64,000 nt of DNA from NCBI GenBank assembly GCA_964484005.1, contig CAZADR010000002.1, positions 10,318-74,317 of the forward strand. Direction: 5' to 3'. Numbering within the stretch: position 1 is the stretch's first letter; each line of letters opens with the position of its first letter. The translations under genes and the position numbers were made by a program. This document shows, piece after piece, positions 91 to 17,664 of this stretch. The notes beneath the pieces are model-generated. The model saw only the letters and a program-made list of their open reading frames with translations, had not been told where the DNA came from and made no database searches. This DNA comes from an uncultured Candidatus Saccharibacteria bacterium (GTDB taxonomy: Bacteria; Patescibacteriota; Minisyncoccia; Phycocordibacterales; UBA9973).

Positions 91-537
91 TTAACAAAAA
101 ATAAATCTTACCTCGTCGGATAGGATTTTTCCTGCCCTAAAATCATCCTGAAGTCCTTTTGGCATAATACGGATGTCGTCAGTGGGGCTTATCCAAACTA
201 TCTCGGCAATTTCGTGTGCATGGGTTCTGGGTAAACTTTCCATGTTTTTATATTCTTGTGAATTTTTTATTTCAAAAAAGAATTCTATGGATTGTTTTTC
301 GTCTGTGTCTATAAAATTATTTACATAAAGCAACCTGCCAATTTCTGGCTTGATTCCCAATTCTTCCATTACTTCTCGTTCCAAGCATTCTTTTATGTCC
401 TCTTTGTGTTCTAGGTGTCCGCCTGGTAATGCACAAAAACTCGTATCGTGCGGATGCTTTACTCCCAACAACTTACCGCCGTTTAAAATAATAGCCCTAA
501 CTCGAGCTCTTAAAAAGAATTTTTTGTCTTGTTCCAT
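91..537 (-). CDS. NUDIX hydrolase
   Basis: Nudix box GGHLEHKEDIKECLEREVMEELGI (GX5EX7REUXEEXGU pattern) in the 148-aa ORF. Confidence 0.8.
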   Translation of the reverse strand: MEQDKKFFLRARVRAIILNGGKLLGVKHPHDTSFCALPGGHLEHKEDIKECLEREVMEELGIKPEIGRLLYVNNFIDTDEKQSIEFFFEIKNSQEYKNMESLPRTHAHEIAEIVWISPTDDIRIMPKGLQDDFRAGKILSDEVRFIFC

Positions 538-561: not shown

Positions 562-2211
562 TTAAACCGCCTTGAATTCTACGAAGAAGGTGGAGCCTTT
601 GTCGGCGCCTTCGGACTCTACCCAGACTTTGCCTCCATGTGTTTCCACTATTAGCTTTACTGTGTAGAGCCCGTAGCCGGTGCTGTCCACATTTACTTTT
701 ACGGAGTCTTTACCTCGTCCACCTTCGGTAAATAGATTCTTTTTATCTTCTTCGGTGATGCCTACTCCAGTATCTTTGATTATGAGCCTTATCTTTCCGT
801 CTCCGTCTTCGAGATTTACAGATATTTTCCCTGCGGGAGTGTACTTGATAGAGTTTTCAATTAAATTATTTACCACTTCTTTGAGCCAAATAGAGTCTCC
901 CAAAAGATTGTAGCCCCCTTCTTTTATTTCAGATTCTAACTGCAAACCTTTTCTTTCAATAGAAACTTTTTTGTCAGAGATGGATTGCTCTACGAGGTCT
1001 CTAAAATTTAAGATTTTCATGTCATATTTAATGAGACCTTTTTCCATATTGGCGGCATTTAACACCAGGTCGACAGTTTCTATGCCCATATTATCAGAAT
1101 CCAAACCTTGTTCCGCATACTTTTTTACTTCAGGACTTATCTCACCAAAGGTTCCATCCAATAGTCCCGCAAAGATATATTTTGAGCGAGTAAATGAACC
1201 CTTCACTTTGTGGGTGACTAGGTGCACGAGGTTTTCTCTTTGTTTAATCAAGTCTTCCAAATCTAGGTTTAATTTCGCCAATTGTTCCTTCTGCTCTATT
1301 TCTTTTTTGACAGATTTAATTAAGAAGAAACCGAAAATTATTGAAGCAATAAAAGTTATGCCAGTTAATACTATATTAATAAATACTTTGACAAACAAGA
1401 ACTGGGAGCCAATAAGTAATACGAGTCCCCAAACCAAGGCCTGGGTGGCGATAAGTTTTACATTAAAGGCTTTATATTTAACAATTAAATAAGCGAGAAA
1501 ACCAACAAAGATAGGCATTCCAAAAAGACCAAATTGAGCAATGGTCCAGTTGTCTGTTAGACTCCCAATAATATTGCCATATGCGAGGCTTAGTAAAAAT
1601 AAAACTATGCCCAGGGTTATATTAAAAATTTGTCTTCTGTCTTCCTTGTTTGCTTTGAAGTATTTTTCAAAAGCAAAAATTAAAATCCATAGTACATAAA
1701 GAATTTCAATTCCATATCCATAAAGAGTGAGTGGTCCCTCTGTAACCTCTCTATAGCAGTTACTCAAGTCAAATTCAACCAAAGCTAATTTTGTTGATGC
1801 AAAAAAGAGTGTGGGTAAAAGAAAAACAGCTATACTCATTTTCTGAATCAGACTGGTGTCTTTTTTATTAATAAATACGTAGATAAAGTAAACACATGCA
1901 GCATAAATTATTGGTTCAATAATTACCAACAGGGACCAAAAGAACATTTGAAAATCAGGTTTTTCGTTTGCCCATAAAACTAAATCAGCAAAAGCCCATA
2001 ATGAAAAAGTGGTAGTTATAAAAAATAAAATCCTGTTGAGTAATGCTTTTTTGTCTTTTAGAAAAATGATTAAACCTATTAAAAAAGATGGTATTAGGGC
2101 AAAAAGGTGGGAATAAAATATAAGTGGATCAAAAACATTATTAGAAAAAATAAAAAACCTTGCTGTATCCCATTGGCATATTTCTATAAAAGATTGAATT
2201 GATGTTTCCAT
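562..2211 (-). CDS. Membrane-bound sensor histidine kinase (multi-TM N-terminus, HisKA/HATPase_c C-terminus)
   Basis: The N-terminal half is very hydrophobic with several TM helices. The C-terminus has ATP-lid motifs (DTGVGI, GGRGKD, GYGLYTV) and ends ..THGGKVWVESEG. No adjacent response regulator was seen. Confidence 0.8.
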   Translation of the reverse strand: METSIQSFIEICQWDTARFFIFSNNVFDPLIFYSHLFALIPSFLIGLIIFLKDKKALLNRILFFITTTFSLWAFADLVLWANEKPDFQMFFWSLLVIIEPIIYAACVYFIYVFINKKDTSLIQKMSIAVFLLPTLFFASTKLALVEFDLSNCYREVTEGPLTLYGYGIEILYVLWILIFAFEKYFKANKEDRRQIFNITLGIVLFLLSLAYGNIIGSLTDNWTIAQFGLFGMPIFVGFLAYLIVKYKAFNVKLIATQALVWGLVLLIGSQFLFVKVFINIVLTGITFIASIIFGFFLIKSVKKEIEQKEQLAKLNLDLEDLIKQRENLVHLVTHKVKGSFTRSKYIFAGLLDGTFGEISPEVKKYAEQGLDSDNMGIETVDLVLNAANMEKGLIKYDMKILNFRDLVEQSISDKKVSIERKGLQLESEIKEGGYNLLGDSIWLKEVVNNLIENSIKYTPAGKISVNLEDGDGKIRLIIKDTGVGITEEDKKNLFTEGGRGKDSVKVNVDSTGYGLYTVKLIVETHGGKVWVESEGADKGSTFFVEFKAV

Positions 2212-2352
2212 AATTATTCTTCAAGTAGAGAATTGTTAAACATTTCTTCGTCCGTAAAAATATCAAAATCTTTTTTTATAACAAAAGTGTAATATGAAAA
2301 AACTATTGATAAAAATACTAAAACAAAAAAAACTATTATAAATACTTTTGAT

Positions 2353-2841: not shown

Positions 2842-2844
2842 AAA

Positions 2845-3474: not shown

Positions 3475-3513
3475 TGTGATATTGTAACATATTTTGATAA
3501 TTTAACAGTAAAA

Positions 3514-3622: not shown

Positions 3623-4405
3623 ATGAGAAAGTATTTTGTTTTCTTTGTAGTTTCACTTCTTCTGGTGGCATTCTCGATGAATGCCGACCGCCGTCGCCCC
3701 GTGCGAATCGGCTCGTCAGACTCGGTGGAGGCAATCATTGCCGTCATCTATCTGGACAAGGATGGACTTCTTGTTCAGGAAGGTGATCCTTGGCATTATT
3801 GCTGGGTGTCAATGCAGTCGATGAGGCCGTTGACCTCGGGTACGACCTTCACCTACTCGGTGCAAAAACCTGGTGCAAATGAAGGTGATTTCACCTTCAT
3901 CAGATCCAACACGGTTCAACTGCATGAGGCAGGGTTTTACACTTCGTCCAGAATATATTTCAAGGACGGGTTCTATGATACCCTTTCTGACGGAAACCGT
4001 CAGGATTGGTTGCCTGGGATCGCTGTGTTCAGGGCGGAGATCCAACCTCTCAAAGGGGTGAAGACTTCGGTCATCCATAAAATACCGGTTCGTCTCGATG
4101 AACTCAGGGTGCCTCTTGGGCCCTTACAGCAGGCCATCGTCTCAGTAGATGGTAGAAGTGTCATGCTTCTGGGAGTTTTTTCAACACCTCCTTCTGCAAT
4201 GCTTTTTCATTTTTACTCCGATGGTACATGGATGAGTAATCCCGTTGGAGTCTCTCAAAACCAGTTTGTGGTTCCAGGTGGGATGTATGGTCATGGATCT
4301 CCACTGACAGTGATGTCGGGATATCCAGATGCAGAGTGCTCTACTGTGCAGGTGGACATTCCGGATACCTCCAAGAATAAGTTGTTTCGTGAAGAAGTTG
4401 AATAG
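3623..4405 (+). CDS. Secreted hypothetical protein, GC-rich, paralog of 34563..35255
   Basis: Signal peptide MRKYFVFFVVSLLLVAFSMNA followed by DRRRPVR. Shares its N-terminus and C-terminal motif (C-S/Q-T-x-Q-V-DIP) with 34563..35255. GC content is clearly above the surroundings. Confidence 0.65.
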   Translation: MRKYFVFFVVSLLLVAFSMNADRRRPVRIGSSDSVEAIIAVIYLDKDGLLVQEGDPWHYCWVSMQSMRPLTSGTTFTYSVQKPGANEGDFTFIRSNTVQLHEAGFYTSSRIYFKDGFYDTLSDGNRQDWLPGIAVFRAEIQPLKGVKTSVIHKIPVRLDELRVPLGPLQQAIVSVDGRSVMLLGVFSTPPSAMLFHFYSDGTWMSNPVGVSQNQFVVPGGMYGHGSPLTVMSGYPDAECSTVQVDIPDTSKNKLFREEVE

Positions 4406-4517: not shown

Positions 4518-7370
4518 TTGTTGTATAATTTACAGCATATGATAACTACATTAAAAAGCAGGTTTTTATTATTAATATTTGTTTTTTCTTTTGTAACTTT
4601 TTTAGGAATTTCCGACAAGGCCAACGCTATGGTTGATTCTAGTGGAAATATTTTTTGTGCTAGAGAAAGTTATTGGGAATTAAACAAGACGGGTGCTGTT
4701 ACTGGAACTGGAGATGAGGGGAGTGGTTATACTACTTTAGTGCCACTACATTCTTCTTCGGATACTAGCTATGATACTATTAGCCCTTTTACGGCTGGCG
4801 CCACTCTCACATATCATCGTCGCTGGGTTGGGACTGAGCCAATATCACCAAGTACTTGGAATAGTTCTTGGACTACAGAAACCTGTACCACGGGTCCACT
4901 AGATGGAAATAAATGCTCTGTGAGTGTCAGTGGTGGTTTTTACCTTAATCCCGCATACAGCGGTGGAGGTCAGGCATATGATATTTATGGTGAGCCTGCA
5001 TGTATAGAAGATGGATATGCTGGTGTTGCTTATAGTTCACCAAATAGGATAAGTGCAGGATATACTGTAAATGCAACTGTTTCCGGGGTTGGGGGATCAC
5101 CTACACCTCTTTCTCAGTCAGTAGCTGCTAACGGCACCACAAAATTTACCTTAACTCCAAGTTCTTCTTATATTGTAAATAAAGATGATGTTACTAAAAA
5201 TTCTACTGGTTGTAATTTAGGAAACGAGGCAACCGCATGGTCTGGAAACGAGTACACTACTGGTACGATTAATGCTAATTGTACTTACACTTTTTCTTTT
5301 ACAGCTATTCCTGCTGTTACTGCTTCTTGTTCCGTCTCAAGTCCGGTGGCATCTGGGGTAAATCCAAGCATTACTTTTACCACAAATTCAAGTTCAAACA
5401 ATTGTTATGTTCGTAACGACAATATTGCCTTTGGTTTTTCTCCTCAACCTGGAACAGGAGTTTCTTCTTCCGGAACAGTCTATCAGCCTGGAGTTCAGAC
5501 AGCGGGCTCTCACCAAGGCTCAATATATTGTCAAAATTCAGCCAATACAGCAAATAGTGGCTGGCAATATTGTCCGTATACAGTGAGTGCACCAGCTATT
5601 CCCGCTACTCCCACAGGTCTTACCGCTACAGCAAGCTCCTGTGGAACTGGAACGATAAATGTATCTTGGAGTGCATCTGCTGGTGCAACAAGTTACACCC
5701 TTAAAGATGGAGCTACTGTTATTTATTCTGGAGCTTCTACTTCTTATTCTCATATTGGTCTAGTTGCAGGTTCTAGTCATAGTTACACTGTTTCTGCTTC
5801 AAACGCTGCGGGTTCATCAGCATATTCAGCTGCTGTTTCAAGAACTGCTCCAGCAGCTTGTGCTCCAACCGACGCTTGTGGTAATGGTAGTAGCTCTTTT
5901 CCTAGATTAACTGAACCGACAACTAATCCAACTGCTTGTAATCCAGGAGTGTATGCAAACTCTCCAGCTGATACCACCACCTTGGGCGCTCAAGCTTGGA
6001 ATTGGTCTTGTGGCACGGTCACTTCCTGTTCTGCTCCCAAATATGGCTGTAGAGTAACGACTGACTCAAATTATAGTCTTCCTCAATATGGACCAACTGG
6101 ACCAAACAACAATTATGGTTGCGCTGGTACTTGTGCAAACGGGGGAACAGATTATTCTACCTGTACACCTCCAGTTGGTATGTCTGGAACCTTGACCACT
6201 CCTAGCTGTACGATTGCTTCCGGGTCCAGCACTTGTACCACGACTGTCTCTTGGACAGTAACTAATCCTGTAGTAGTCGGCGGCTCTTCAGTCACTTCTT
6301 CATATCCTAGTGCTGGTACAGTCGTCGCTCCTCCAGTCAGTACTGGAACTGCAGATTCAGGTACAAAAACAGGTGTAACTATTCCATATAGTTCCAGGAC
6401 TTTCTATCTTTACAACAACAATGTTCAATTAAATACAGGCACAGCTAACGCTACCTGCGCTACAGGTTCAGCCTGGAACGGAACCATCTGTTATACAGCA
6501 CCCGCTCTTCCTGATTTGACAGCCGCTTCTACTACTCCTTCTACTGCTGTAAAAAATGAAGCCAAAACTTTTTCTTCAATCGTTACAAACATTGGAGCTG
6601 CAGATACTGGTGCATCTTTCTCAAACTTCTTTCAAGTGTGTAATGTAGGAGGAGGATGTGCAACTCCAACAGATCTAGCTCCTACTACCATGACAGCTTT
6701 GGCTGGTGGAGCGACCGGTACGGCCACCAAAGATTACACCTTTACCTCTGTCGGAACATTTTCTGTTCGAGCTTGTGCAGACAAGACAAACTCTGCTTCT
6801 CTTGGTGTAATTAACGAAGGGACCATGGAAGGCAACAACTGTGGAAATTGGGCTAATGTTACTGTTTCCGATACCCCAACTCCACCTTCCAATGAAGCCC
6901 CCGTCATCACCATCTGGGCTACTCCAACTTCTGGTACCGTGAATATTGTCAAACCTACTATTCTCTGGAGTGTCGACAATGATCCGACATCTTGTGCGGC
7001 AAGTGAAGACTGGTTAGGTAGTCGAAATTACAGTGGAGCTCAAACTCAAGAACCAGCCTTAAATCAAATTAAAACTTACCGTTACACATTAATCTGCTCC
7101 AATGCTTATGGTAGTGATGAAGCTACTGCTACGGTCGCAGTGTCTGGAACTGCCTCTGGAGTAAGTATTAGTGTAAATCCTACCTCCATCTATGCTGGAG
7201 ATTCAGCCACTCTCACTTGGTCAGGCGCAGGAGCTTGTACTTATAACTTTGATACTGGTTCTAATATTGTAACTCCAAATACGACCACTACTTACACTCT
7301 TACTTGTGATGGTGTATCTTCTAGTGCTACATTGATAGTGAAGAAGAAACCGATATTTATTGAGGATTAG
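4518..7370 (+). CDS. Large secreted Cys/Thr/Ser/Gly-rich surface protein (likely start 4539, MITTLKSRFLLL signal peptide)
   Basis: Signal peptide, low-complexity T/S/G/C-rich composition, and an extended -10 TGTTGTATAAT upstream. The C-terminal ~460 aa are identical to the product of 35386..38112. Confidence 0.7.
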   Translation: MLYNLQHMITTLKSRFLLLIFVFSFVTFLGISDKANAMVDSSGNIFCARESYWELNKTGAVTGTGDEGSGYTTLVPLHSSSDTSYDTISPFTAGATLTYHRRWVGTEPISPSTWNSSWTTETCTTGPLDGNKCSVSVSGGFYLNPAYSGGGQAYDIYGEPACIEDGYAGVAYSSPNRISAGYTVNATVSGVGGSPTPLSQSVAANGTTKFTLTPSSSYIVNKDDVTKNSTGCNLGNEATAWSGNEYTTGTINANCTYTFSFTAIPAVTASCSVSSPVASGVNPSITFTTNSSSNNCYVRNDNIAFGFSPQPGTGVSSSGTVYQPGVQTAGSHQGSIYCQNSANTANSGWQYCPYTVSAPAIPATPTGLTATASSCGTGTINVSWSASAGATSYTLKDGATVIYSGASTSYSHIGLVAGSSHSYTVSASNAAGSSAYSAAVSRTAPAACAPTDACGNGSSSFPRLTEPTTNPTACNPGVYANSPADTTTLGAQAWNWSCGTVTSCSAPKYGCRVTTDSNYSLPQYGPTGPNNNYGCAGTCANGGTDYSTCTPPVGMSGTLTTPSCTIASGSSTCTTTVSWTVTNPVVVGGSSVTSSYPSAGTVVAPPVSTGTADSGTKTGVTIPYSSRTFYLYNNNVQLNTGTANATCATGSAWNGTICYTAPALPDLTAASTTPSTAVKNEAKTFSSIVTNIGAADTGASFSNFFQVCNVGGGCATPTDLAPTTMTALAGGATGTATKDYTFTSVGTFSVRACADKTNSASLGVINEGTMEGNNCGNWANVTVSDTPTPPSNEAPVITIWATPTSGTVNIVKPTILWSVDNDPTSCAASEDWLGSRNYSGAQTQEPALNQIKTYRYTLICSNAYGSDEATATVAVSGTASGVSISVNPTSIYAGDSATLTWSGAGACTYNFDTGSNIVTPNTTTTYTLTCDGVSSSATLIVKKKPIFIED

Positions 7371-7378: not shown

Positions 7379-7457
7379 TTTTGAATTTAATAAATTAAAA
7401 AACCTATTTTATAACCCTAAGATAGGTTTTTTTATAGTTTATTGTTAAACTTTAAGT

Positions 7458-8030
7458 ATGATACTAGAGACCAAAAGGTTGATATTAAGAAAGCCCCAAA
7501 AGAGTGACTGGAAAGACTTAGTGGAGGGAGTGGGGGAGTATGATGTCGCCAAGATGCTTTTGATGGTGCCTCATCCTTACGGGAAAAAAGATGCAGATAC
7601 TTATATAAAAACTGTAATAAAAAGATGGGCACAAAAGGTTCAAAATGACTATACTTTTTTTATTGAGTTGAAATCCGAGAAAAAAGTTATTGGAGCTATT
7701 GGAATCCACAGAATAAACATTTTTTCTGGAACTGGAACGACGGGCTCCTGGATTAATAAAAAATATTGGAGAAATGGTTATATGACCGAGGTCAAAATTG
7801 TGTTAAATGATTTTGCCTTTAATAAATTAAAATTAAGAAGATTGAATTCAGAAGTTTTTGCTGGAAATAAAGCCTCAAACGCCACTCAGTCAAAAATGGG
7901 GTATAAGCTCGAGGGAACAATGAGAAAAGCCGCGAGGTGCAAAGCATCAGGCGAAATTCATGATGAAAATACCTATGGTTTATTAAAAGAAGATTGGAAG
8001 AGGGCCAGAGCTAAGATTGTTAAAAAATAG
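7458..8030 (+). CDS. GNAT family N-acetyltransferase (RimJ/RimL-like)
   Basis: N-terminus MILETKRLILRKPQKSDWKDL and overall GNAT-like pattern; 190 aa. Confidence 0.65.
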   Translation: MILETKRLILRKPQKSDWKDLVEGVGEYDVAKMLLMVPHPYGKKDADTYIKTVIKRWAQKVQNDYTFFIELKSEKKVIGAIGIHRINIFSGTGTTGSWINKKYWRNGYMTEVKIVLNDFAFNKLKLRRLNSEVFAGNKASNATQSKMGYKLEGTMRKAARCKASGEIHDENTYGLLKEDWKRARAKIVKK

Positions 8031-8035
8031 TTTTT

Positions 8036-8473
8036 ATGGAAACAAAGTTAAATGAAATAGGAAATGAATTTAAATGCCCCGTGGCCATTGTCGTGAAAGA
8101 GGGGAAAATATTGACTGGGCATCGTCATTATACAAAAGATAAATGGAAGGAAATTTCTGTTTGGACTATACCAGGCGGTAGGTGTGATTCTGGTGAAACT
8201 TTAAGGCAAGCTCTCACCAGAGAGATACAAGAAGAAGTAGGAATCACGGAATTTGAAATAGTAGATTTTATAGGAGAAGCACCAGGGGCAAAAGAGGGGG
8301 ACAGTGTGCCTATGTTTTTCTGTACGACAGAGCAAGATTTTATACTAATGGAACCAGAAAAGTTTTCTGAATGGAAATGGGTAACAAAAGATGAATACAT
8401 AAATGAGGACAAATACAGTGGTTTTAATCCTGTGGTAAAAAATTTGATTGTGGAATATCTAAAAAATCTATGA
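8036..8473 (+). CDS. NUDIX hydrolase
   Basis: Nudix box GGRCDSGETLRQALTREIQEEVGI. Confidence 0.75.
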   Translation: METKLNEIGNEFKCPVAIVVKEGKILTGHRHYTKDKWKEISVWTIPGGRCDSGETLRQALTREIQEEVGITEFEIVDFIGEAPGAKEGDSVPMFFCTTEQDFILMEPEKFSEWKWVTKDEYINEDKYSGFNPVVKNLIVEYLKNL

Positions 8474-8499
8474 AAAAGTGGGTATTTTTGAAATAAAAA

Positions 8500-9006
8500 A
8501 TGAGCAAAGAAAATTTAAATAAAATACTTATAGTTGGAGATATGGGAAGAGGAAAGTCCACTCTTGCAGAGAAACTTTCTAAAAAATTGGGGATACCGTA
8601 TTATTCTACTGACGATTTTTACTATGAGATAAAATTCTCAAAAGTACGAGATAGGCCAGAAAGTATTGAAAAAATACTAGAAGTTTACAAAACAGATAAA
8701 TGGATTGTTGAGGGTACGACTAAACGTCTTATTGAAAATGGTTTGCACTCCGCAGATTTAATTATTCATCTTCAGCATAAAAATATACCGACGCAGTGGG
8801 TGATTCTTTTTAAAAGATATTTGGGAAGAGAAAATGAAACAATCTTTGGATTATTTGGTCTTATGAAACATTCTTTGTTTAAAAAATATAAAATTGGTTA
8901 TAGAAAAGGTAAAGAAACACCCACAGAGACTATTGAGCCACATAAACATAAAGTAGTTAAGCTTTCTTCTTTTAAAGAAATAGATAAATTTATGGATTCA
9001 TTGTAA
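8500..9006 (+). CDS. P-loop NTPase / small-molecule kinase-like protein
   Basis: Walker A GDMGRGKST near the N-terminus; 168 aa, adenylate-kinase/topology-modulation-like. Confidence 0.5.
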   Translation: MSKENLNKILIVGDMGRGKSTLAEKLSKKLGIPYYSTDDFYYEIKFSKVRDRPESIEKILEVYKTDKWIVEGTTKRLIENGLHSADLIIHLQHKNIPTQWVILFKRYLGRENETIFGLFGLMKHSLFKKYKIGYRKGKETPTETIEPHKHKVVKLSSFKEIDKFMDSL

Positions 9007-9011
9007 ATTTT

Positions 9012-9899
9012 ATGGAAATTAAAAAAAGAAAATTTTTGAGTAAAATACACAAAGAATTTCCAGACTTAAGGTGGAAGAATGCAGAACATAATGTAGAGGG
9101 GTGGGATCATTATGTAATTATTTTAGATGATAAATATGTTTTTCGTTTTCCTCGAGCAAAAAAATATTTAAAGAAATTAAAAAATGAAATTCTTTTACTT
9201 AAGTATTTAAAAGACAAAGTTGAAGTTTCTATTCCCGAGTATACCTATATTGCAAAAGATAAGAGCTTTGCAGGATATTCTTTGATTCCGGGAATACAGC
9301 TAAAGAGGAAAGTATTTAAAACTATACCAAACAAAACGAGGAATCTTCTCGCCAAACAAATTGCAGATTTTCTTTCTTCTTTACATAAAACATCACATAA
9401 AGTTGCCAAACAGTACGGCGTTAAGAGTATAAAAACACAGAAACAATATAGAGAACTGGTGGTAAATACAAGTAAATATATTTTTCCTAGAATTTCTAAA
9501 AAAGAGCAGCTTCTTATTAATGATTATCTAAAAGAATTTAAGAATTATTTAAAGTTTCCCAAAAAAGTTTTTACCCACAATGATTTTTACTCCAAGCATA
9601 TTCTTTTGGGAAAAAACAAAAAATATATTTCAGGGATTATAGATTTTTCTGACAGAAAGATAGACGACCCCGCCCGAGATTTTAGTGAACTTTGGGATTA
9701 TGGAGAAAAATTCACGCTAGAAGTGTATAAAAATTATAAAGGCCACAAAGACAAAGATTTTTTAAAACGATCAATGCTGTATTATAAAAGAATCCCTCTT
9801 TGGACGATGATTTCTCCATTTCAGGGTGGTCGTGGTAAGTTTAAAAAAGGATATAAAGCATTTAAGCTGTTATTTAATAGTAAAAATAAGCTGGTATAA
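9012..9899 (+). CDS. Aminoglycoside/choline-kinase-type phosphotransferase (APH-like)
   Basis: Catalytic-loop-like HNDFYSKHILL and IIDFSD (DFG-like) motifs; 295 aa. Confidence 0.6.
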   Translation: MEIKKRKFLSKIHKEFPDLRWKNAEHNVEGWDHYVIILDDKYVFRFPRAKKYLKKLKNEILLLKYLKDKVEVSIPEYTYIAKDKSFAGYSLIPGIQLKRKVFKTIPNKTRNLLAKQIADFLSSLHKTSHKVAKQYGVKSIKTQKQYRELVVNTSKYIFPRISKKEQLLINDYLKEFKNYLKFPKKVFTHNDFYSKHILLGKNKKYISGIIDFSDRKIDDPARDFSELWDYGEKFTLEVYKNYKGHKDKDFLKRSMLYYKRIPLWTMISPFQGGRGKFKKGYKAFKLLFNSKNKLV

Positions 9900-9906
9900 T
9901 ACAGTA

Positions 9907-10383
9907 ATGATCATTTTTCTTAATGGCTCAATAAATGCAGGGAAAAGTACAGTTGCTAAAATATTAGCAACAAAACTTTTGAATACTGCTTTGGTAGAAA
10001 TTGATTCTTTAAGGGAAATGATTGACTGGATACCCATAGACCAGGCTGTGCCGATAAACCTGGAAAATGCTATTTCGGTAATAAAGAATTTTATAAAAAG
10101 AAATTTAAATGTAATTGTCCCATATCCTTTATCTCAAGATAATTATGATTATGTTGCAGGAGAACTAAAAGACATTAATACTAAAGTTTTCTTTTTTACC
10201 CTTGCTCCAAAACTCGAAGCGATACTAGGAAATAGGGGAGAAAGAGAGTTGGGCAAAAATGAGAGTGAAAGAATTAAGCATCATTATGATGTTGGTATCC
10301 ACAACCCATCTTTTGGGGAAATTATTGATAATACTAATCAAACCCCAGAAGAAACAGCGAAAGAAATATTAAAAAATCTATGA
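9907..10383 (+). CDS. P-loop kinase (chloramphenicol-phosphotransferase-like / AAA family)
   Basis: Walker A NGSINAGKSTVAKIL. The start is chosen at the in-frame ATG at 9907 (MIIFLNGS) rather than the track start at 9826, which overlaps the upstream gene. Confidence 0.55.
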   Translation: MIIFLNGSINAGKSTVAKILATKLLNTALVEIDSLREMIDWIPIDQAVPINLENAISVIKNFIKRNLNVIVPYPLSQDNYDYVAGELKDINTKVFFFTLAPKLEAILGNRGERELGKNESERIKHHYDVGIHNPSFGEIIDNTNQTPEETAKEILKNL

Positions 10384-11417
10384 AAAATACGATAGAAGCG
10401 AGTAGAAACATATTAATATTAACAGACGATAGAAACCAATTTTATAGCTCTTCAAAAGAATATGGAGGTAGCATGAATACATCTATAATTTTGAAAGAAC
10501 TTGAAAATTTTGGATATAAAGTGACAATTAAGGGTTTTTCAGAAATTTTCTCTAATGATGATAGTTATAAAAATTATTTTGTATTATATCAATCTACCGA
10601 GGACCCAGATCTTAGATATAAAGACTACGTAGAAGATGTAATCTTAGGTCTAAAAATTTCTGGAGCATACTTAATACCATCTTTTGAATATTTTAGAGCA
10701 CATCACAACAAAGTGTTTATGGAAATTTATAGGTTGCGAGCAAATTATGATAAATCTATCATGTCGTGGCATTTTGGAACATTTGAAGAATTAACTAAAA
10801 CTAAATGTAATTTTACATATCCTGTTGTTATTAAACCATCAGCGGGATCAAAAAGTAAAGATATTTCGCTTGCTCAGAATAAAAAGGAGTTGTTGGCTGC
10901 AGCCTTTAAAATTTCCAGAAGTTTTACCCTTGTAAATACACTAAGAGCAGTTAAAGCCTTTTTACATTTTAAAAACTATAACCCTATCTCAAATAATAGA
11001 AAAAAATTTATTGTTCAGGAATTTGTAAGTGGTTTGTCTGGTGATTACAAGGTATTAATATATGGAGATAAATACTATGTCGTAAGGAGAGAGAATCGGC
11101 CAGGTGATTTCAGGGCAAGTGGTAGTGGACTTTTTACCTTTTTAGATGTGGCATTGGATGACTTATTGAATTATGCTGAATCTGTTTTTACAAAATCAGA
11201 TACTCCTTTTTTGGGTATAGACATTGGTATTCGTGATGGTCGTTTTTTTCTTCTAGAATTTCAGTTTATGGTTATGGGAAGCGGTGCACTAGAAAGGTCG
11301 AGTGCTTATTTCAGAAAAATTGATAATAAGTGGCAAGTTATACGTGAAAAGTCTATACTAGAGAAGGTGTTTGCAGAGAGCGTGTATCTTTATATTAATA
11401 ATTTAAATAAAAAATAA
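10380..11417 (+). CDS. ATP-grasp domain protein
   Basis: YPVVIKPSAGSKSKDI and QEFVSGLSGDYKVLIYGDKYYVVRRE are typical ATP-grasp motifs. Confidence 0.6.
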   Translation: MKNTIEASRNILILTDDRNQFYSSSKEYGGSMNTSIILKELENFGYKVTIKGFSEIFSNDDSYKNYFVLYQSTEDPDLRYKDYVEDVILGLKISGAYLIPSFEYFRAHHNKVFMEIYRLRANYDKSIMSWHFGTFEELTKTKCNFTYPVVIKPSAGSKSKDISLAQNKKELLAAAFKISRSFTLVNTLRAVKAFLHFKNYNPISNNRKKFIVQEFVSGLSGDYKVLIYGDKYYVVRRENRPGDFRASGSGLFTFLDVALDDLLNYAESVFTKSDTPFLGIDIGIRDGRFFLLEFQFMVMGSGALERSSAYFRKIDNKWQVIREKSILEKVFAESVYLYINNLNKK

Positions 11418-12077
11418 ATGCCACCACTTGAAGATATATTTATAATAAGACATGGAGAATCTGACGAGGATGTTAATCCTGAAATGAAGGGGATGATTCA
11501 TAATTCCGAAATGGCTCTAACCCCAAAAGGTATTGAGCAAGCCCATGAAGTGGCTGAAAAATTAAAGGGTGAAATTGTGAATTTTGATGAAGTTACCTTT
11601 TATGTTTCTCCATACAAAAGAGCACAACAGACAGCTAAAATAATTTTAGATACATTAAAAAATGATAAGATAAAAATGATAACTGAGCCTTCAATAAGAA
11701 GCTTAAATTGGGGCGATACAACAACGGAAAATTTAAAGGAAAGAGAACAAGAGAGGTATAAAGTTGGTGTTTTGCATTATAATTTTCCAAATGGAGATAG
11801 GTCACCAGAATATGTTGAAAATATTTATGATTTTGTTTATAGAATAATTAAAGAAAAGCACATAGATAATGATAAAAAAGAGTGTGTTGTTATTGTTGGG
11901 CATGGATTTTCATTAAGAATAATTGTAAAAGCTTTTACTGAAATGAGTGATGATGATTTTAAGTGGATAAAAAATCCACCCAATACACATGTGGCTAGGA
12001 TATACTTTGATCCACAAAAAAATAATTTCTACATGAGAGAGCCTTTACCAGTTCGTGACCCAAGTCAGGTTGAATAA
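11418..12077 (+). CDS. Histidine phosphatase superfamily (phosphoglycerate-mutase-like) protein
   Basis: IFIIRHGESDED (RHGE signature), SPYKRAQQTA and VGHGFSL motifs. Confidence 0.75.
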   Translation: MPPLEDIFIIRHGESDEDVNPEMKGMIHNSEMALTPKGIEQAHEVAEKLKGEIVNFDEVTFYVSPYKRAQQTAKIILDTLKNDKIKMITEPSIRSLNWGDTTTENLKEREQERYKVGVLHYNFPNGDRSPEYVENIYDFVYRIIKEKHIDNDKKECVVIVGHGFSLRIIVKAFTEMSDDDFKWIKNPPNTHVARIYFDPQKNNFYMREPLPVRDPSQVE

Positions 12078-12084
12078 TAGATTT

Positions 12085-12636
12085 ATGATCAAATACTTAA
12101 AGATTATAAAAAATTTTAATATTTTTCCAAATAGTAAAATTAAAAAACCTAAAAAATATATTGAAAGACAGACGGTTAGAGCAATAGCTCTTAATAAAAA
12201 AGGAGAGATAGCTTTAGTTACAAATCCTATTCATAACTTATATTCATTTCCGGGTGGTGGAGCAGAGAGCGACAACCTAGAAAATGAAATTATAAGAGAA
12301 TGCGCTGAAGAGATAAGTCAAGAAGTAGTTGTTGTTAAGAAAATTGGAAAAATTAAGGAATACCGAGATAGAGAGTCAAAAAAATACATCACAACTTGTT
12401 TTGAGGTGAAAGCAATTAAAAAAATTAAAAAAGATTTTAGAACAGAAAGCGAGATTAAAAATGGACTTAATGTTGTTTGGTTTAATGTTGATGAAGCAAA
12501 AAAAATATTTGAAAAACAAGTAAAAAAAATTGAAGAAGGAAAAATTAATTTTTATAATACAGCTTTTAATATTGTAAGAGATCTAGAGTTTTTGAATGAG
12601 TATTTAAATATTAATGAAAATAATACACAAAAATAA
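12085..12636 (+). CDS. NUDIX hydrolase
   Basis: Nudix box GGGAESDNLENEIIRECAEEISQE. The start is set at the ATG at 12085, just after the upstream stop. Confidence 0.7.
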   Translation: MIKYLKIIKNFNIFPNSKIKKPKKYIERQTVRAIALNKKGEIALVTNPIHNLYSFPGGGAESDNLENEIIRECAEEISQEVVVVKKIGKIKEYRDRESKKYITTCFEVKAIKKIKKDFRTESEIKNGLNVVWFNVDEAKKIFEKQVKKIEEGKINFYNTAFNIVRDLEFLNEYLNINENNTQK

Positions 12637-12646
12637 GGTAAAACTC

Positions 12647-13063
12647 ATGAAAAAATTCTACTCGGTTATTGTTAATAGTCTCATTGTAAATAATGAAGGT
12701 AAAGTATTGATTGCACAAAGAAGCCCTGAAGAAGGGCACGAGGGAGGAAGATGGAGTATTCCTGGTGGAAAAGTAGAGTCAAACGGTCAAGAGCATGATG
12801 TTTTATTAAAAAATATTAAAAAAGAGATTTTAGAAGAAGTGGGAGTTGAAATATTTGATGACATTTCCCTAGTCCACGATAATACATTTACCAGAAGCAA
12901 TGGGGATGATGTTTTGGCTTTAGTTTTTAAATGTAAATATAAATCCGGAGAAGCGAAATCATTAGAAGATACGACAGATGTAAAATGGATAGGAAAAGAG
13001 GAAATTGATAGCTATCAATTTCCTCCTAATGTGAGAGAGTATGTATTAAAGGGGTTTAGTTAA
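12647..13063 (+). CDS. NUDIX hydrolase
   Basis: Nudix box GGKVESNGQEHDVLLKNIKKEILEEVGV. An alternative start is 12614. Confidence 0.7.
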   Translation: MKKFYSVIVNSLIVNNEGKVLIAQRSPEEGHEGGRWSIPGGKVESNGQEHDVLLKNIKKEILEEVGVEIFDDISLVHDNTFTRSNGDDVLALVFKCKYKSGEAKSLEDTTDVKWIGKEEIDSYQFPPNVREYVLKGFS

Positions 13064-13635
13064 TTTTTCTGATTCTCAAAAATTTTGTTGATACTCTCTG
13101 GTCCGGTATAAAGTACGGTTCTTAAATTTGGATATTTTTCAAAATTTAAATCTGCAAATCTTTTTTCTTTGTCATCCACAAAAATAACTTCATCGTCCTT
13201 AAATTGTTCACAGATATTCTCTACTGGACCCTTTTTTGTATCTAAAACAGTAAAAATTTGAGTAAAAAGTGGCCCAAGTCCGGTTCTTTCTACTTTTCCA
13301 AGCTGGTATTCTTTTACGCCGTGGGTAACCATATAGCAATCTTTTACCTCTAATTTTTTGATTTGATCAATCAGTTCGTTATTAACAAAATTTTTACATT
13401 CTCCCATTATTTTCTCGGAAAGTTCTTCTTTGCTTATGGAAGTTATATTTTCACCTTTTAAGACCGAGGCGACTAGACCAGGGAGGGTCCAACCTTTTTC
13501 TGTCTCAATTTTATAGTATTTTTTTACCGTATCATAATCTACCCCAACTTCCTCGAAACACGCATACATGTGTTTTTTAAATTTCTCTGTATTAAAAAAT
13601 AAAACATCGTCAAAATCAAAAATATATTTTGTCAT
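13060..13635 (-). CDS. HAD-superfamily hydrolase
   Basis: N-terminal DxD motif FDFDDVLF; 191 aa. Confidence 0.55.
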   Translation of the reverse strand: MTKYIFDFDDVLFFNTEKFKKHMYACFEEVGVDYDTVKKYYKIETEKGWTLPGLVASVLKGENITSISKEELSEKIMGECKNFVNNELIDQIKKLEVKDCYMVTHGVKEYQLGKVERTGLGPLFTQIFTVLDTKKGPVENICEQFKDDEVIFVDDKEKRFADLNFEKYPNLRTVLYTGPESINKIFENQKN

Positions 13636-13639
13636 ATAG

Positions 13640-14437
13640 TTATCTTTTTAATTTTTCTAAAATTAGGTCGGAATTCGAATTTTCCTTAATTTCTGTATCC
13701 ACCAGAAGAGCTGGTTTTCTCTCTCTGTCCTCGATAGGCCGTTCTCTTCCTTCATTAAAAGCTGTCAGTATTTTTTCTTTTTCATGCGGTTCAAAAGTGT
13801 TACCAGTAAATCCTTTTGAATTTCTTAAGTAAACAAAAAATTTATTGAATAATTCCACTTCGTTCAATAGCGTTTTAAGTGTTGTTTCTATGTTTCTATA
13901 TGCTTCATCATGGCTACTTTTTTTAGTATATCGAGCAGAAATACCCAACTTCTTTAATTCTTCATATCTATATTCTAAGCTTAGAAGAGAAAGTTCGTAG
14001 GGAGTAGAAAGCACAACAAGATTAATATTATAATCTTGCCCTTTTAGCATTTTTGCAGTTGAGAGAGGAGCTTCTTTTGTTCTCATTGTTCCTTCTACTA
14101 TCATATTTAAGCCACGAATAGCACACTCTTGAATTAAAGATTCAATCCAAAAATTACAAGCTGGTTGGGTCATGTCAGCAGCTTCTTGGTTGTTTTCTAT
14201 TAAATATGAATAATATTTTGGATGGTATGATCTTAGGTCATCTCCGTTTATAAAAACTGCGTTTGTGTTTAATTTCAATAATTCTCTAACTAGAGTACTC
14301 TTTCCACTGCCTGGTTGACCACCCAAAATAAAAGCATCTTTTACTATTTGGGGTGAGATGTTTCCAATTATTTGAGGGATTATTTTTTCTCTCAGAATAA
14401 TATTTATTTCTTCTTCTGATAGGTCAAATTTATTCAT
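13640..14437 (-). CDS. Zeta-toxin-family P-loop kinase
   Basis: Walker A LGGQPGSGKSTL, characteristic of zeta/PezT UDP-GlcNAc kinases; 265 aa. Confidence 0.6.
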   Translation of the reverse strand: MNKFDLSEEEINIILREKIIPQIIGNISPQIVKDAFILGGQPGSGKSTLVRELLKLNTNAVFINGDDLRSYHPKYYSYLIENNQEAADMTQPACNFWIESLIQECAIRGLNMIVEGTMRTKEAPLSTAKMLKGQDYNINLVVLSTPYELSLLSLEYRYEELKKLGISARYTKKSSHDEAYRNIETTLKTLLNEVELFNKFFVYLRNSKGFTGNTFEPHEKEKILTAFNEGRERPIEDRERKPALLVDTEIKENSNSDLILEKLKR

Positions 14438-14438
14438 A

Positions 14439-14630
14439 TTAACTTAAATTATCATTTATTTCTTTCAATGTTTTTATATTATCGACATAATCAAAATTGC
14501 CGTAATAAATTCGGTGACGCATCAAAGAAAGTTTTTCAATTAATTCTAAATTTTTAAAATATACAGCTTTAGCAAAAACTGTGTTTAGCATATTTAGTAA
14601 AACTTCTGTTTGTAAAGTATTGTCTGTCAT
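14439..14630 (-). CDS. Small hypothetical protein immediately upstream of zeta-like kinase (candidate antitoxin)
   Basis: 63-aa ORF ending 1 nt before the kinase start on the same strand. Confidence 0.35.
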   Translation of the reverse strand: MTDNTLQTEVLLNMLNTVFAKAVYFKNLELIEKLSLMRHRIYYGNFDYVDNIKTLKEINDNLS

Positions 14631-14637
14631 AATTTAT

Positions 14638-15825
14638 TTAACTTATCTTCTCTATCTTTTCCCAAGGCAAATTGTCTTTACCAAAGTGGCCGTAGGCGGA
14701 AGTTTGGGAGAAGATTGGTGCGCGGAGATTTAGTTTTTCGATAATTGCGAGAGGTTTGAAATCAAAATTCTTGCGAACTATTTCCGCCAAGTTTTCTCCT
14801 TTTTCATTTATGGCTTCTATCATTAGTGGCTCTGCCATACCGATAGCGTAAGCGACTGCTACAAGTACTTCTTTGCCGTAGCCGGAAGCGACTAAATTTT
14901 TAGCGACGAATCGCGCCATGTAGGCGCCAGAGCGGTCTACTTTGGTGGCGTCTTTACCAGAGAAACATCCGCCTCCATGTGGAATGAGTCCGCCATAAGT
15001 ATCTACCATTAATTTTCTACCAGTGAGGCCTGTGTCTGCCTCAAAGCCACCTTGGATAAATTGGCCAGTAGGGTTTACTAAAATTTTTACAGTTTTCTTT
15101 TCCTCCTCAGAGAGTAGGGGATAGATTATTTTTTCCGTGATTTCTTTTTTAATTTCTTCGTGGGCTACCTCCGCAGAATGCTGAGTGCTAACTAAAACAG
15201 TATTTAATTTCCCATCAGTATAAGTGACTTGAGTTTTGCCGTCTGGTCGAAGCCAGGGGATTGTCGGCAAAATATTTCCGTCAGGGAGAATATCCTCGCT
15301 CTCACCACGATAATTTTCTGCTGAAAATTCTCTCTGTCCGTCGTCGACACTCCTACCAAGGGTTCGCTCGAGGACATTCTCCCTTTTAGAATTTACTCGC
15401 ACTTCTTCAAGTCTCTTTGCGAGTTTGTGGGCGAGGACGATGCCTTTTGGTAAAAATTCTGGAGTCTCGTCTGTGGCAAAGCCGTACATTATTCCTTGGT
15501 CTCCGGCTCCGCCGGTGTCCACTCCCATGGCGATGTCGGGGGATTGGTTTACTATGTGTGAGACAATTTCCAATTCATCCGTGTAGCCTATATTTTTATA
15601 AATTTCACGAGCTATTTTCTCGTGGTCTACTTTACCCGTAGAAGTGACTTCACCTCCTATTACTAGCTTGCCGTGCCCGCCGAAAGTCTCTACGGCTACT
15701 CGGCTCTTTGAATCTATTTTTAAATAAGCATCTAGGATGGCGTCTGAAATCTGATCACAAATTTTGTCTGGATGGCCAGAGGTAACGCTTTCAACAGTGT
15801 AATTGTTGTTGTGTTTGTAAAACAT
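14638..15825 (-). CDS. metK: S-adenosylmethionine synthetase
   Basis: GHPDKICDQISDAILDA, GGGCFSGKDATKVDRSGAY and other MetK motifs; 395 aa. Confidence 0.9.
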   Translation of the reverse strand: MFYKHNNNYTVESVTSGHPDKICDQISDAILDAYLKIDSKSRVAVETFGGHGKLVIGGEVTSTGKVDHEKIAREIYKNIGYTDELEIVSHIVNQSPDIAMGVDTGGAGDQGIMYGFATDETPEFLPKGIVLAHKLAKRLEEVRVNSKRENVLERTLGRSVDDGQREFSAENYRGESEDILPDGNILPTIPWLRPDGKTQVTYTDGKLNTVLVSTQHSAEVAHEEIKKEITEKIIYPLLSEEEKKTVKILVNPTGQFIQGGFEADTGLTGRKLMVDTYGGLIPHGGGCFSGKDATKVDRSGAYMARFVAKNLVASGYGKEVLVAVAYAIGMAEPLMIEAINEKGENLAEIVRKNFDFKPLAIIEKLNLRAPIFSQTSAYGHFGKDNLPWEKIEKIS

Positions 15826-15858
15826 AGATTATCTTAATTTTGATTATACTACAAAAAT

Positions 15859-16380
15859 TTAATTATTTTCAACCAGTTTTTTTACTTTTACCAACCTCTC
15901 TTCGGGTGAACCGACAACTTCAATAAATGGAATCTCGTGCTTTTTAAAAATATCTCTGACTTTCTTGTCTATAGCTTGTTGGAATTCTTTATCAGTTGTC
16001 CTCACTCCATCATCTTCGATTTCAAATTGACCACTAGGTAAATACAAAACCAAATCATAATTGTTGAATCTTGGTACTAGTGTTTCTGTGGCGAATTCAA
16101 TCAAAGAAGATTCTTCGGAAAATAAGTGGTGTATATAAGCAAGGAGGTCTATAGAGGAGCGATCCGCTACCCATTTGCCTTCCGTGTTTTCGAGCTCAAT
16201 TTGTTTTTCAATTAGCCAAAGCTCTGTCTCTGTCGTAGCAGTCTCATCAAGAGCATACCCCGCTTCTTTTGCGAGGCGTGCTGCTTCGGGCAGGATTTCA
16301 AAGTCTGGGTATTCTTTATTTATTTGTTCGGCCAAGGTGGTCTTGCCTACTCCTTGAGCTCCGGTGATTACGATTTTCAT
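15859..16380 (-). CDS. P-loop NTPase (AAA-family kinase-like)
   Basis: Walker A GAQGVGKTTLAEQ; 173 aa. Confidence 0.5.
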   Translation of the reverse strand: MKIVITGAQGVGKTTLAEQINKEYPDFEILPEAARLAKEAGYALDETATTETELWLIEKQIELENTEGKWVADRSSIDLLAYIHHLFSEESSLIEFATETLVPRFNNYDLVLYLPSGQFEIEDDGVRTTDKEFQQAIDKKVRDIFKKHEIPFIEVVGSPEERLVKVKKLVENN

Positions 16381-16404
16381 AAAAGTTTCATAATTATTTT
16401 GTAA

Positions 16405-17664
16405 CTATTTAGTTCCATCTCGCCAACCAGCCATATATTTTTTTTGAGTTTCTGTGAGTTTATCTATGGTTGTGCCTAGGCTGTGTAACTTTAGGGTGGC
16501 TATCTTTCTATCTAAAATTTCTGGCAAGACATGTACGGCGTTTGAGAGCTTCCCTTTATTTTTTAAAATATATTCTGCTGCTAAAGCTTGATTGGCAAAG
16601 CTCATGTCCATCACCGAGGCAGGGTGCCCCTCTGCACTACCGAGATTTACGAGTCTGCCACCAGCGAGCACAAAGATAGTTTTTCCATTCTTCATGGTAT
16701 AGGCCTCTACAAAGTCTCGCAAAGTTTTTTTGTTTTTCGTCATTTTTTGAAGTGAAACTAAATCAATCTCTACATCAAAGTGTCCAGAGTTTGAAATAAC
16801 ACAACCATCTTTTATATTGTGAAACGTTTCACTTCCGACGACACTTGTGTTTCCTGTGACGGTACAGATAAAGTCTGCAATTTTTGCCGCATCCGTCATC
16901 GGCATCACCCTGAAGCCATCTAGGAGCGCCTCGATGGCTTTGATTGAATCTATTTCTGTGACTATAACATTTGCCCCCATGCCTCGGGCCCGCATCGCTA
17001 GGCCTTTACCACACCACCCATAACCAGCGACTACAAAGACAGAGCCCGCAATTAATTTATTGGTAGCACGAATTATTCCGTCCAAAGTAGATTGTCCTGT
17101 GCCGTAGCGGTTGTCGAAAAAGTGCTTTGTCATAGAATCATTTACTGCGACGACGGGGAAGAGAAGTGTGCCTTCTTTTTCCATAGATTTTAATCTAGAG
17201 ACTCCGGTGGTGGTCTCTTCTGTGCCACCGATTATTTTTTGTATTTGATTTTGTTTCTTAGTGTGAAGTTCCCCCACAAGGTCTGCGCCATCATCCATGG
17301 TCATGCTTGGATTCATATCCAACACATTGTGCAAGTGCTCAAAATATTCTTTTTTACTTTCTCCCTTTTTTGCGAAGACTGGAATACCAAAATTTTTCAC
17401 CAAGGCTGCCGCCACATCATCTTGAGTGGAGAGAGGGTTTGAGGCACAGAGACCGACAGTGGCCCCGCCCTCTTTGAGGGCGATCATAAGGTTTGCCGTC
17501 TCGGCAGTAACATGTAAGCAGGCTCCGATGGTGACCCCCTTGAAAGGCTTTGATTTTTTAAAGTCGGCCGAGATGCCGGAGAGGACAGGCATATCTCGTT
17601 TGGCCCACTCTATCTTAATCAGGCCCTTTGGAGCTAGATTTATATCTTTTATGTTATGTTTCAT
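16405..17664 (-). CDS. ahcY: Adenosylhomocysteinase
   Basis: NAD-binding GYGWCGKGLAMRARGMGANVIVTEIDSIKA and overall SAH hydrolase architecture; 419 aa. Confidence 0.9.
   Translation of the reverse strand: MKHNIKDINLAPKGLIKIEWAKRDMPVLSGISADFKKSKPFKGVTIGACLHVTAETANLMIALKEGGATVGLCASNPLSTQDDVAAALVKNFGIPVFAKKGESKKEYFEHLHNVLDMNPSMTMDDGADLVGELHTKKQNQIQKIIGGTEETTTGVSRLKSMEKEGTLLFPVVAVNDSMTKHFFDNRYGTGQSTLDGIIRATNKLIAGSVFVVAGYGWCGKGLAMRARGMGANVIVTEIDSIKAIEALLDGFRVMPMTDAAKIADFICTVTGNTSVVGSETFHNIKDGCVISNSGHFDVEIDLVSLQKMTKNKKTLRDFVEAYTMKNGKTIFVLAGGRLVNLGSAEGHPASVMDMSFANQALAAEYILKNKGKLSNAVHVLPEILDRKIATLKLHSLGTTIDKLTETQKKYMAGWRDGTK

Follow-up and report, generated by a model that had tools for sequence, protein, structure and literature searches.

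A conserved ATP-grasp, histidine phosphatase and Nudix gene trio amid strain-variable accessory genes in an uncultured Candidatus Saccharibacteria bacterium

A 64,000-nucleotide stretch of DNA from an uncultured Candidatus Saccharibacteria bacterium (contig CAZADR010000002.1, positions 10,318 to 74,317; hereafter the window) holds a dense block of ten genes for small-molecule-modifying enzymes at 7458-13635. Our analysis revealed that three of these genes, encoding an ATP-grasp ligase, a histidine phosphatase and a Nudix protein (Nudix2), form a three-gene functional unit within variable accessory genes, and that the block is not one pathway but falls into three parts. The first part is the conserved module (10380-12636), which consists of the ATP-grasp gene, the branch-1 histidine phosphatase gene and the dedicated Nudix gene. 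The second is a strain-variable slot between a GNAT acetyltransferase gene and the ATP-grasp gene, and the third is a variable block on the right with a further Nudix gene (Nudix3), a HAD-like gene, a PezT-like toxin gene with a small upstream open reading frame (ORF), and MetK-AAA_28-AHCY. We consider it probable that the block combines an uncharacterised amidoligase module related to glycans or nucleotide sugars, in which the ligase would be served by two phosphate-trimming partners, with strain-variable accessory genes resembling antibiotic-modifying enzymes.

In total, 175 related loci were compared, and only the trio stays together across them. An alignment of 36 ATP-grasp homologues (A1) retrieved 80 loci from contigs of one genome per species, more loci were obtained through exact-protein look-ups, and a scan of metagenomes with a Nudix2 alignment yielded 80 further loci. 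Collapsing loci at 90% ATP-grasp identity gave 43 non-redundant lineages of the candidate phyla radiation (CPR) type. The sequence-only reading of this DNA had proposed that gene-neighbourhood conservation would decide whether the ten genes belong together. In the 43 lineages, co-localisation was found for the ATP-grasp, histidine phosphatase and Nudix2 genes: within four genes of the ATP-grasp gene, Nudix2 is present in 41 of the 43 and the histidine phosphatase in 37. When 15 proteins of the window were searched by tblastn against 86 ATP-grasp-anchored loci, the histidine phosphatase was found in 29 and Nudix2 in 28, and the other seven genes of the block (GNAT, Nudix1, P-loop kinase, APH, CPT-like kinase, Nudix3 and HAD-like) in none.

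In the ATP-grasp-anchored set the trio is present in all Patescibacteria-type loci, and in most Paceibacteria-type genomes it is a small operon of its own. Three gene orders were found (ATP-grasp-phosphatase-Nudix2; phosphatase-Nudix2-ATP-grasp; and the latter with the phosphatase inverted), and the flanks of the trio have nothing in common across the Patescibacteria-type loci. In one Pacebacteria genome the trio lies inside a ribosomal-protein operon, between L5 and S14 (locus L006, 6887-9135). The source of the window is a Paceibacteria-type member of the Patescibacteria: identical copies of its ATP-grasp protein occur on metagenome contigs only, and homologues of the ATP-grasp are labelled Pacebacteria, Yanofskybacteria and Patescibacteria, as are homologues of Nudix2 and of the APH protein. 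A reciprocal scan anchored on Nudix2 covered 50 Nudix2-family genes flanked by 2.5 kb or more on each side, and 33 of them have the ATP-grasp gene no more than two genes away. Furthermore, an in-frame Nudix2-ATP-grasp fusion of 519 aa was identified in L172 (5992-7551) and at the same position in L174 and L175, which come from different samples; in the sister contig L173 the two proteins are encoded by separate genes.

In L095, a relative at 59% identity, more Nudix genes, two extra His_Phos_1 genes, and CYTH and HIT genes surround the trio (1717-3834 and 12784-15616). Small nucleotide hydrolases seem to accumulate around the trio in several genomes.

The ATP-grasp gene (10380..11417, + strand), the first gene of the core, encodes a carboxylate-amine ligase of an unnamed family. 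Family calls were made with Pfam against the gathering score (GA) and with NCBIfam against curated cutoffs. The ATP-grasp fold is present, and the closest folds are ArgX, LysX, RimK, DcsG and GshB. Pfam ATP-grasp models stay under GA (ATP-grasp_4, 20.1 against 27 bits; RimK, 15.6 against 21 bits), as do the NCBIfam RimK and LysX equivalogs under their cutoffs (TIGR00768, 17.6 against 143.4 bits; LysX, 21.7 against 275.6 bits). The protein is only 12-16% identical to the group of RimK, LysX, ArgX and glutathione synthetase. It differs from that group in a distinct N-terminal domain with invariant D16, Y70, S72, D75, Y80, Y83, E85 and D86, and in the partners of its family, which are the phosphatase and Nudix proteins or GT4 glycosyltransferases. 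The family is large, with 462 clusters at E<=1e-30 in a library clustered at 50% identity, and includes the isolates Algoriphagus, Marivirga, Petrimonas and Myroides.

Orthologues outside the CPR lie in polysaccharide clusters, where the neighbours include GT1/GT4 glycosyltransferases (46 loci), PGA_cap (14), hexapeptide acetyltransferases (13) and DUF362 (10), in addition to UDP-GlcNAc 2-epimerase, WecG/TagA, epimerases of the short-chain dehydrogenase/reductase (SDR) type and AsnB. In two library representatives (P0329, 611 aa, and P0350, 740 aa), a GT4/GT1 glycosyltransferase is fused N-terminal to the ATP-grasp of this family. The 37 residues invariant in A1, those of the N-terminal domain included, show the same degree of conservation in 50 trio-linked copies as in 47 polysaccharide-linked copies from other phyla. 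Because these residues are kept in both settings, the ATP-grasp reaction is likely to be the same in both.

A functional parallel comes from the capsule synthesis of Campylobacter jejuni, in which the ATP-grasp enzyme Cj1438C links glucuronate to a phosphorylated amine through an amide bond, after which the phosphatase Cj1435 takes off the phosphate (PMC11800379). Like Cj1438C and Cj1435, the ATP-grasp of the trio is paired with a phosphatase, and its orthologues are found in polysaccharide clusters. By analogy, amide formation on a sugar acid followed by dephosphorylation may be the chemistry of the trio. There are also clear differences. Cj1438C is TupA-like, whereas no A1 member falls under the TupA-like Pfam model, which is absent from the 18 Pfam families matched by the 36 members at E<=0.1 (ATPgrasp_ST is matched by 3 of the 36, with a best E of 0.034). 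Cj1435 is a HAD enzyme, whereas the trio has a histidine phosphatase and, in addition, a Nudix partner; and unlike the Cj1438C system, the CPR loci have no glycosyltransferase domain or neighbour. In the mechanism that we propose, the ATP-grasp would activate a carboxylate as an acyl-phosphate and join it to an amine, on a substrate that may be related to glycans or nucleotide sugars. Nudix2 would cleave the diphosphate linkage of a precursor or product (nucleoside diphosphate-X to nucleoside monophosphate and X-phosphate), and the histidine phosphatase would strip the remaining phosphate, whatever the order of the three steps.

Nudix2 (12085..12636, + strand; PF00293, 33.5 bits against a GA of 21.1), the third gene of the core, has a Nudix box and belongs to a distinct Nudix family. 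This family is set apart by an N-terminal extension and by a long C-terminal helix with the motif FYNTAFNIxRD, on which Y157-N158-x-x-F161-N162 are invariant; in the window copy, the first Glu of the box is Asp. The AlphaFold2 model of Nudix2 is of high confidence (predicted local distance difference test score 93.9). A Nudix2 profile matched 2azw from Enterococcus faecalis (3e-11) and DIPP1 (1e-7) in the PDB, and Foldseek search of the model returned DIPP (4e-8) and MutT1 (2.6e-8), with DIPP no better than MutT1, Ap4A hydrolase or 2azw. The best matches, of the DIPP/NUDT3 type, the Ap4A type and 2azw, are yet only about 15-22% identical to Nudix2, and they differ from it in the N-terminal extension and the long C-terminal helix. 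In L108-L110, a stand-alone Nudix2 gene is followed by a homologue of the HAD-like gene of the window at 84-87% identity. Nudix2 is therefore found with a phosphatase-type enzyme of either of two unrelated families, the histidine phosphatases or, in these three loci, the HAD-like proteins.

The histidine phosphatase (11418..12077, + strand; His_Phos_1 PF00300, 102.9 bits against a GA of 21.7), the second gene of the core, is a branch-1 enzyme: the model scores above GA, and the catalytic Arg-His...Arg...Glu...His set is intact, with R11, H12, R68, E110 and H162 at least 95% conserved among 44 sequences. Its NCBIfam scores lie under the cutoffs of SixA (57.5 against 74.5), CobC (58.9 against 162.9) and dPGM_arch (61.3 against 225), and among solved structures it comes closest to phosphoglycerate-mutase-like enzymes, PhoE and CobC, with E values of 1e-7 or weaker. 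Elsewhere in the window, an IleRS-like class I tRNA synthetase of 1168 aa (57267-60773, + strand) carries a His_Phos_1 insert in its catalytic domain (residues 506-669, 98 bits). This insert is 28% identical to the trio phosphatase (pairwise E 6e-13), to which no solved structure comes as close, and the same IleRS-His_Phos_1 architecture is found in a Yanofskybacteria locus (L010, 1399-4845).

The pairing of a Nudix protein with a histidine phosphatase recalls mycobacterial MutT1, a natural fusion of a Nudix domain with an RHG-phosphatase domain (PMC11784022, PMC12407098), which combines the same two superfamilies. A different account of the trio builds on this likeness: Nudix2 and the phosphatase would be a split form of the MutT1 type, the pair would sanitise the nucleotide pool and, by a phospho-histidine phosphatase activity, reset a neighbouring seven-transmembrane (7TM) histidine kinase, and the ATP-grasp would be an accessory. 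MutT1 dephosphorylates sensor kinases and nucleoside diphosphate kinase (PMC11784022, PMC12407098), the structure search with the Nudix2 model places the MutT1 Nudix domain among its best matches, and the phosphatase has the partial SixA match given above. A 7TM histidine kinase is encoded in the window at 562..2211 (- strand; Pfam HATPase_c and HisKA_7TM), about 8 kb from the trio, and at seven separate loci (L093, L097, L135, L149, L153, L169 and L172), which differ in gene order and show 38-68% Nudix2 identity, a homologous kinase gene adjoins Nudix2 or the trio. We nevertheless regard this account as improbable. Neither Nudix2 nor the phosphatase has a sequence-level match to MutT1, and the structural score of MutT1 is no better than those of DIPP or Ap4A hydrolases. 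Unlike in MutT1, Nudix2 and the phosphatase are separate genes in every locus examined, and the trio phosphatase, at 219 aa and PGM/PhoE-like, differs from the short SixA-like domain of MutT1 and is associated with an ATP-grasp. Only 4 of the 43 lineages, in addition to several stand-alone Nudix2 loci, have the kinase gene nearby (no more than four genes from the ATP-grasp gene in those 4), and the much tighter ATP-grasp link and the Nudix2-ATP-grasp fusion would be left unexplained. Beside the 7TM kinase gene, the window encodes a SET-domain protein (2353-2841, - strand; 52.9 bits), and this pairing is kept in L093 (1-393).

The top fold matches of the ATP-grasp are ligases of amino acids and of protein C-termini, so a role in the synthesis of a small solute of peptide type or in the modification of protein C-termini, as in the RimK, LysX or N-acetylglutaminylglutamine amide (NAGGN) pathways, with AsnB as the amidating partner, was also considered. 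In 7 lineages, an AsnB-like amidotransferase gene is found no more than four genes away from the ATP-grasp gene; it is a partial match to the model of the NAGGN amidotransferase (294 bits, cutoff 570). The L006 trio, moreover, lies inside a ribosomal-protein operon. The RimK and LysX scores, however, are far under their cutoffs, and such a role accounts neither for the phosphatase and Nudix partners nor for the GT4 fusions and the polysaccharide-cluster context of the orthologues; we judge it to have a slim chance. Other neighbours of the trio support the sugar-related chemistry that we propose: an SDR of the NDP-sugar epimerase/dehydratase type directly flanks it in L016, L096, L138 and L153, and an RfaE-II-like sugar-1-phosphate nucleotidyltransferase adjoins it in L010. 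The AsnB-like gene of the 7 lineages can be counted with them.

Several results weigh against the glycan-related amidoligase module set among resistance-like genes that we favour. The ATP-grasp scores above the cutoff of no curated family and has no sequence match in the PDB, even with the family profile. In none of the 43 CPR lineages is a glycosyltransferase encoded up to four genes away from the ATP-grasp, and therefore the glycan link rests on the orthologues from other phyla. The similarity of Nudix2 is about the same to DIPP, to Ap4A hydrolases and to enzymes of the MutT type, and nucleotide or polyphosphate substrates thus fit as well as NDP-sugars. Among the 50 Nudix2-family genes with adequate flanks, 13 have neither partner nearby, so that the link to the ATP-grasp is strong, not obligate, and the Nudix2-ATP-grasp fusion is limited to one lineage (at least 90% ATP-grasp identity). 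The AsnB-like neighbour, by its scores a generic asparagine synthase, may simply be a housekeeping gene. In the cassette left of the trio, the resistance functions are suggested only by sub-threshold similarity.

It is possible, though we think it unlikely, that the trio represents a hitherto unrecognised pathway of these tiny symbionts, present almost throughout one large lineage of Patescibacteria, which makes or recycles an amide-linked block derived from a sugar or nucleotide. Its ligase would be orthologous to the GT4-coupled one elsewhere, and the 7TM kinase would perhaps control the pathway or be fed back on through a MutT1-like phospho-histidine phosphatase activity. The enzyme superfamilies are all known. 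A literature search for the gene combination found nothing relevant, and the trio unit, the fusion and the unnamed, GT4-linked ATP-grasp family appear to be undescribed in the searchable literature. Patescibacteria have tiny genomes, in which few conserved gene sets are understood. A trio kept across dozens of lineages, even within a ribosomal-protein operon, likely matters for their biology, and identification of the ligase substrate would annotate both a widespread polysaccharide-modification step and its CPR-specific variant. We regard the trio as a solid, testable conserved module, not as a surprising new kind of system.

Within the window, the ten ORFs that the sequence-only reading had noted in 7458-13635 are all present, and its observation is confirmed in part. 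It had placed all ten on one strand; nine are co-directional on the + strand (7458-13063, with intergenic spacing of -23 to +26 nt), and the tenth, the HAD-like gene, lies on the - strand. The array opens with a GNAT acetyltransferase (RimJ/RimL-type, Acetyltransf_3; 7458..8030, + strand; 87 bits in Pfam). It continues, also on the + strand, with the generic MutT-like Nudix1 (8036..8473; PF00293, 70.7 bits against a GA of 21.1; full Nudix box), a small adenylate-kinase-like P-loop kinase of the 'FlaR' type (8500..9006; AAA_18, 25.7 bits, below GA; NF005994, 63.7 against 215), an APH(2'')-like small-molecule kinase (9012..9899; PF01636, 66 bits; NCBIfam, 95.6 against 625) and a chloramphenicol-phosphotransferase-like (CPT-like) P-loop kinase of 158 aa (9907..10383; PF07931, 26.4 bits against a GA of 22), the 3' end of which overlaps the ATP-grasp start by 4 nt. 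Downstream of the trio lie the generic MutT-like Nudix3 (12614..13063, + strand; PF00293, 47.7 bits against a GA of 21.1; NUDIX_4, 42.3 bits), in whose box KE replaces RE, and, convergent with the array, the HAD-like hydrolase (13060..13635, - strand; PF13419, 17.6 bits, below the GA of 23.8), in which motif I DxDxV (DFDDV) was recognised by eye only. The earlier family calls thus stand above GA for the GNAT, Nudix, APH, His_Phos_1 and CPT-like proteins, and fall below it for AAA_18, HAD and ATP-grasp; no curated NCBIfam cutoff is reached by any of the ten proteins. Four Nudix genes had been counted in the interval, at a density called unusual. Three are there, and the fourth (91..537, - strand; PF00293, 55.8 bits) lies 7 kb away. 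Since all four Nudix genes of the window fall within its first 13 kb, the clustering is real, though modest.

Between an upstream gene for a 950-aa protein and GNAT, an inverted repeat with 18-nt arms, a 6-nt loop and a T-run (7394..7435, + strand) is probably the terminator of the upstream gene, to judge from the sequence, and the array would therefore begin a new transcription unit. The hairpin was missed by the terminator scan, and the promoter and terminator scans gave results no higher than shuffled expectation. From its co-directional packing, 7458-13063 is probably one transcript in this strain. The sequence-only reading had suggested a single operon that builds or turns over one nucleotide-derived metabolite. 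The tight packing, the terminator-like hairpin just upstream of GNAT and families that all act on nucleotides, phospho-esters or small molecules are what such an operon would show. Nevertheless, the absence of seven of the ten genes from all 86 ATP-grasp-anchored loci, the opposite strand of the tenth gene, the missing genes in the closest relative and the unrelated contexts of the APH homologues (both described below) largely refute it as an account of all ten genes, and we now hold it to be most improbable. The idea of one operon for a nucleotide-derived metabolite fits the three-gene core and not the whole block; the single-transcript layout is local to this strain and does not reflect operon conservation.

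Comparison with the closest relative, L096, defines the variable parts. The core genes of L096 are 89% (ATP-grasp), 96% (histidine phosphatase) and 93% (Nudix2) identical to those of the window, and its flanks are syntenic, with GNAT (79%) on the left and homologues of the genes at 17929, 18292 and 20481 of the window (83-87%) on the right. Between GNAT and the ATP-grasp, L096 carries no more than two genes, for a P-loop kinase at 27% identity to that of the window and for a 152-aa ANT(2'')-like nucleotidyltransferase (3774-4232; PF10706, 19.6 bits, just below threshold). It has no Nudix1, APH(2'')-like kinase, CPT-like kinase, Nudix3 or HAD-like gene. After Nudix2, L096 has a single NAD-dependent epimerase gene in place of the Nudix3, HAD-like, zeta toxin, 63-aa ORF, MetK, AAA_28 and AHCY genes of the window. 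Given this gene order, neither the cassette genes nor the block at 12614-17664 is shared. The left side of L092 is arranged as in L096, and Nudix1 is missing there too. GNAT homologues were found only in L092 and L096, and GNAT forms the left border of the variable slot. Two different folds resembling aminoglycoside-2'' modifiers thus occupy one slot, an ANT(2'')-like protein in L096 and an APH(2'')-like kinase in the window.

Among solved structures, APH(2'')-IIIa and -IVa give the best matches to the APH(2'')-like kinase (E 5e-27). Like them, it has the catalytic motifs and aligns over 250 residues, with HNDFxxxH and IIDFxD matched (6ctz). Unlike APH(2''), it reaches only 95.6 bits against a cutoff of 625, and its substrate may not be an aminoglycoside. 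Homologues that are 80% identical to it have different surroundings, beside ResIII, PDDEXK or methyltransferase genes and two genes downstream of a homologue of the 91-537 Nudix gene; copies 64-66% identical to this window Nudix are found in L176 and L177. The CPT-like kinase has no homologue at any related locus and no sequence match below E 0.01 in the PDB. From these similarities, the left cassette (Nudix1 and the P-loop, APH(2'')-like and CPT-like kinases) is best read as a set of putative antibiotic-modifying-like or housecleaning enzymes, and it is an example of resistance-like genes exchanged at one fixed slot between close CPR relatives.

The sequence-only reading had offered self-resistance or detoxification as its other explanation, under which the whole block, the trio included, would inactivate xenobiotics. 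This suits the variable cassette: an APH(2'')-like kinase, a CPT-like kinase and a GNAT protein are present, the ANT(2'')-like gene of L096 occupies the same slot, and genes and transferases resembling antibiotic-resistance (AR-like) aminoglycoside modifiers are reported to be abundant and widespread in CPR genomes (PMC8651080). It does not extend to the whole block. The trio is conserved independently of the resistance-like genes and usually stands alone, orthologues of its ATP-grasp lie in polysaccharide clusters, and every resistance-family score is far under the curated cutoff, which leaves a block-wide resistance function with little probability.

A role in anti-phage defence was weighed as well. 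A PADLOC scan of the ten proteins matched Nudix1 (51.5 bits) and Nudix3 (62.9 bits) to the candidate system PDC-S07, a zeta toxin gene is adjacent, and the APH homologues of relatives stand beside the ResIII, PDDEXK and methyltransferase genes mentioned above. The PDC-S07 matches, however, reflect similarity at the level of the Nudix domain, the scan of the ten proteins gave nothing further except a weak IetA match of the P-loop kinase (19.4 bits), and the trio is vertically conserved. The 64-kb window contains no tRNA and no Rfam match, its repeats are of low complexity only, and the region lacks an integrase and flanking repeats. A defence island is very unlikely. A foreign origin, suggested by low GC content in a 2-kb profile, was considered and rejected, with per-gene values of GC content at third codon positions (GC3) within the spread of the window (0.25 in the island against 0.30 +/- 0.07 in the rest). 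With no compositional break, mobility genes, flanking repeats or tRNA, the block does not have the features of a horizontally acquired island. The window is part of a chromosome, with genes for RNase Y, ClpP, trigger factor and an H+-pyrophosphatase and a ComM-like gene.

To the right of the HAD-like gene lie a zeta/PezT-like toxin kinase (13640..14437, - strand; PF06414, 121.9 bits; PezT equivalog, 115 against 470) and, 1 nt upstream of it, the 63-aa ORF (14439..14630, - strand), which has no Pfam match and is possibly the antitoxin of the zeta toxin, on position alone. They are followed by the block of MetK, the AAA_28 P-loop protein and AdoHcy hydrolase (AHCY), assigned by Pfam (14638-17664, - strand), with a GC3 of 0.35-0.44 against 0.16-0.27 in its neighbours. 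The 950-aa protein upstream of the array (4518-7370, + strand) looks paralogous to a 908-aa protein (35386-38112, + strand); each has one weak CARDB match at a similar position, and both have high overall GC (0.43) and low GC3 (0.25). Three ORFs of doubtful coding status on the + strand (3623-4405, 34563-35255 and 45926-46582) are outliers in GC (0.46-0.51) and GC3 (0.47-0.51) and have no Pfam match; the second of them overlaps a 191-aa ORF on the - strand.

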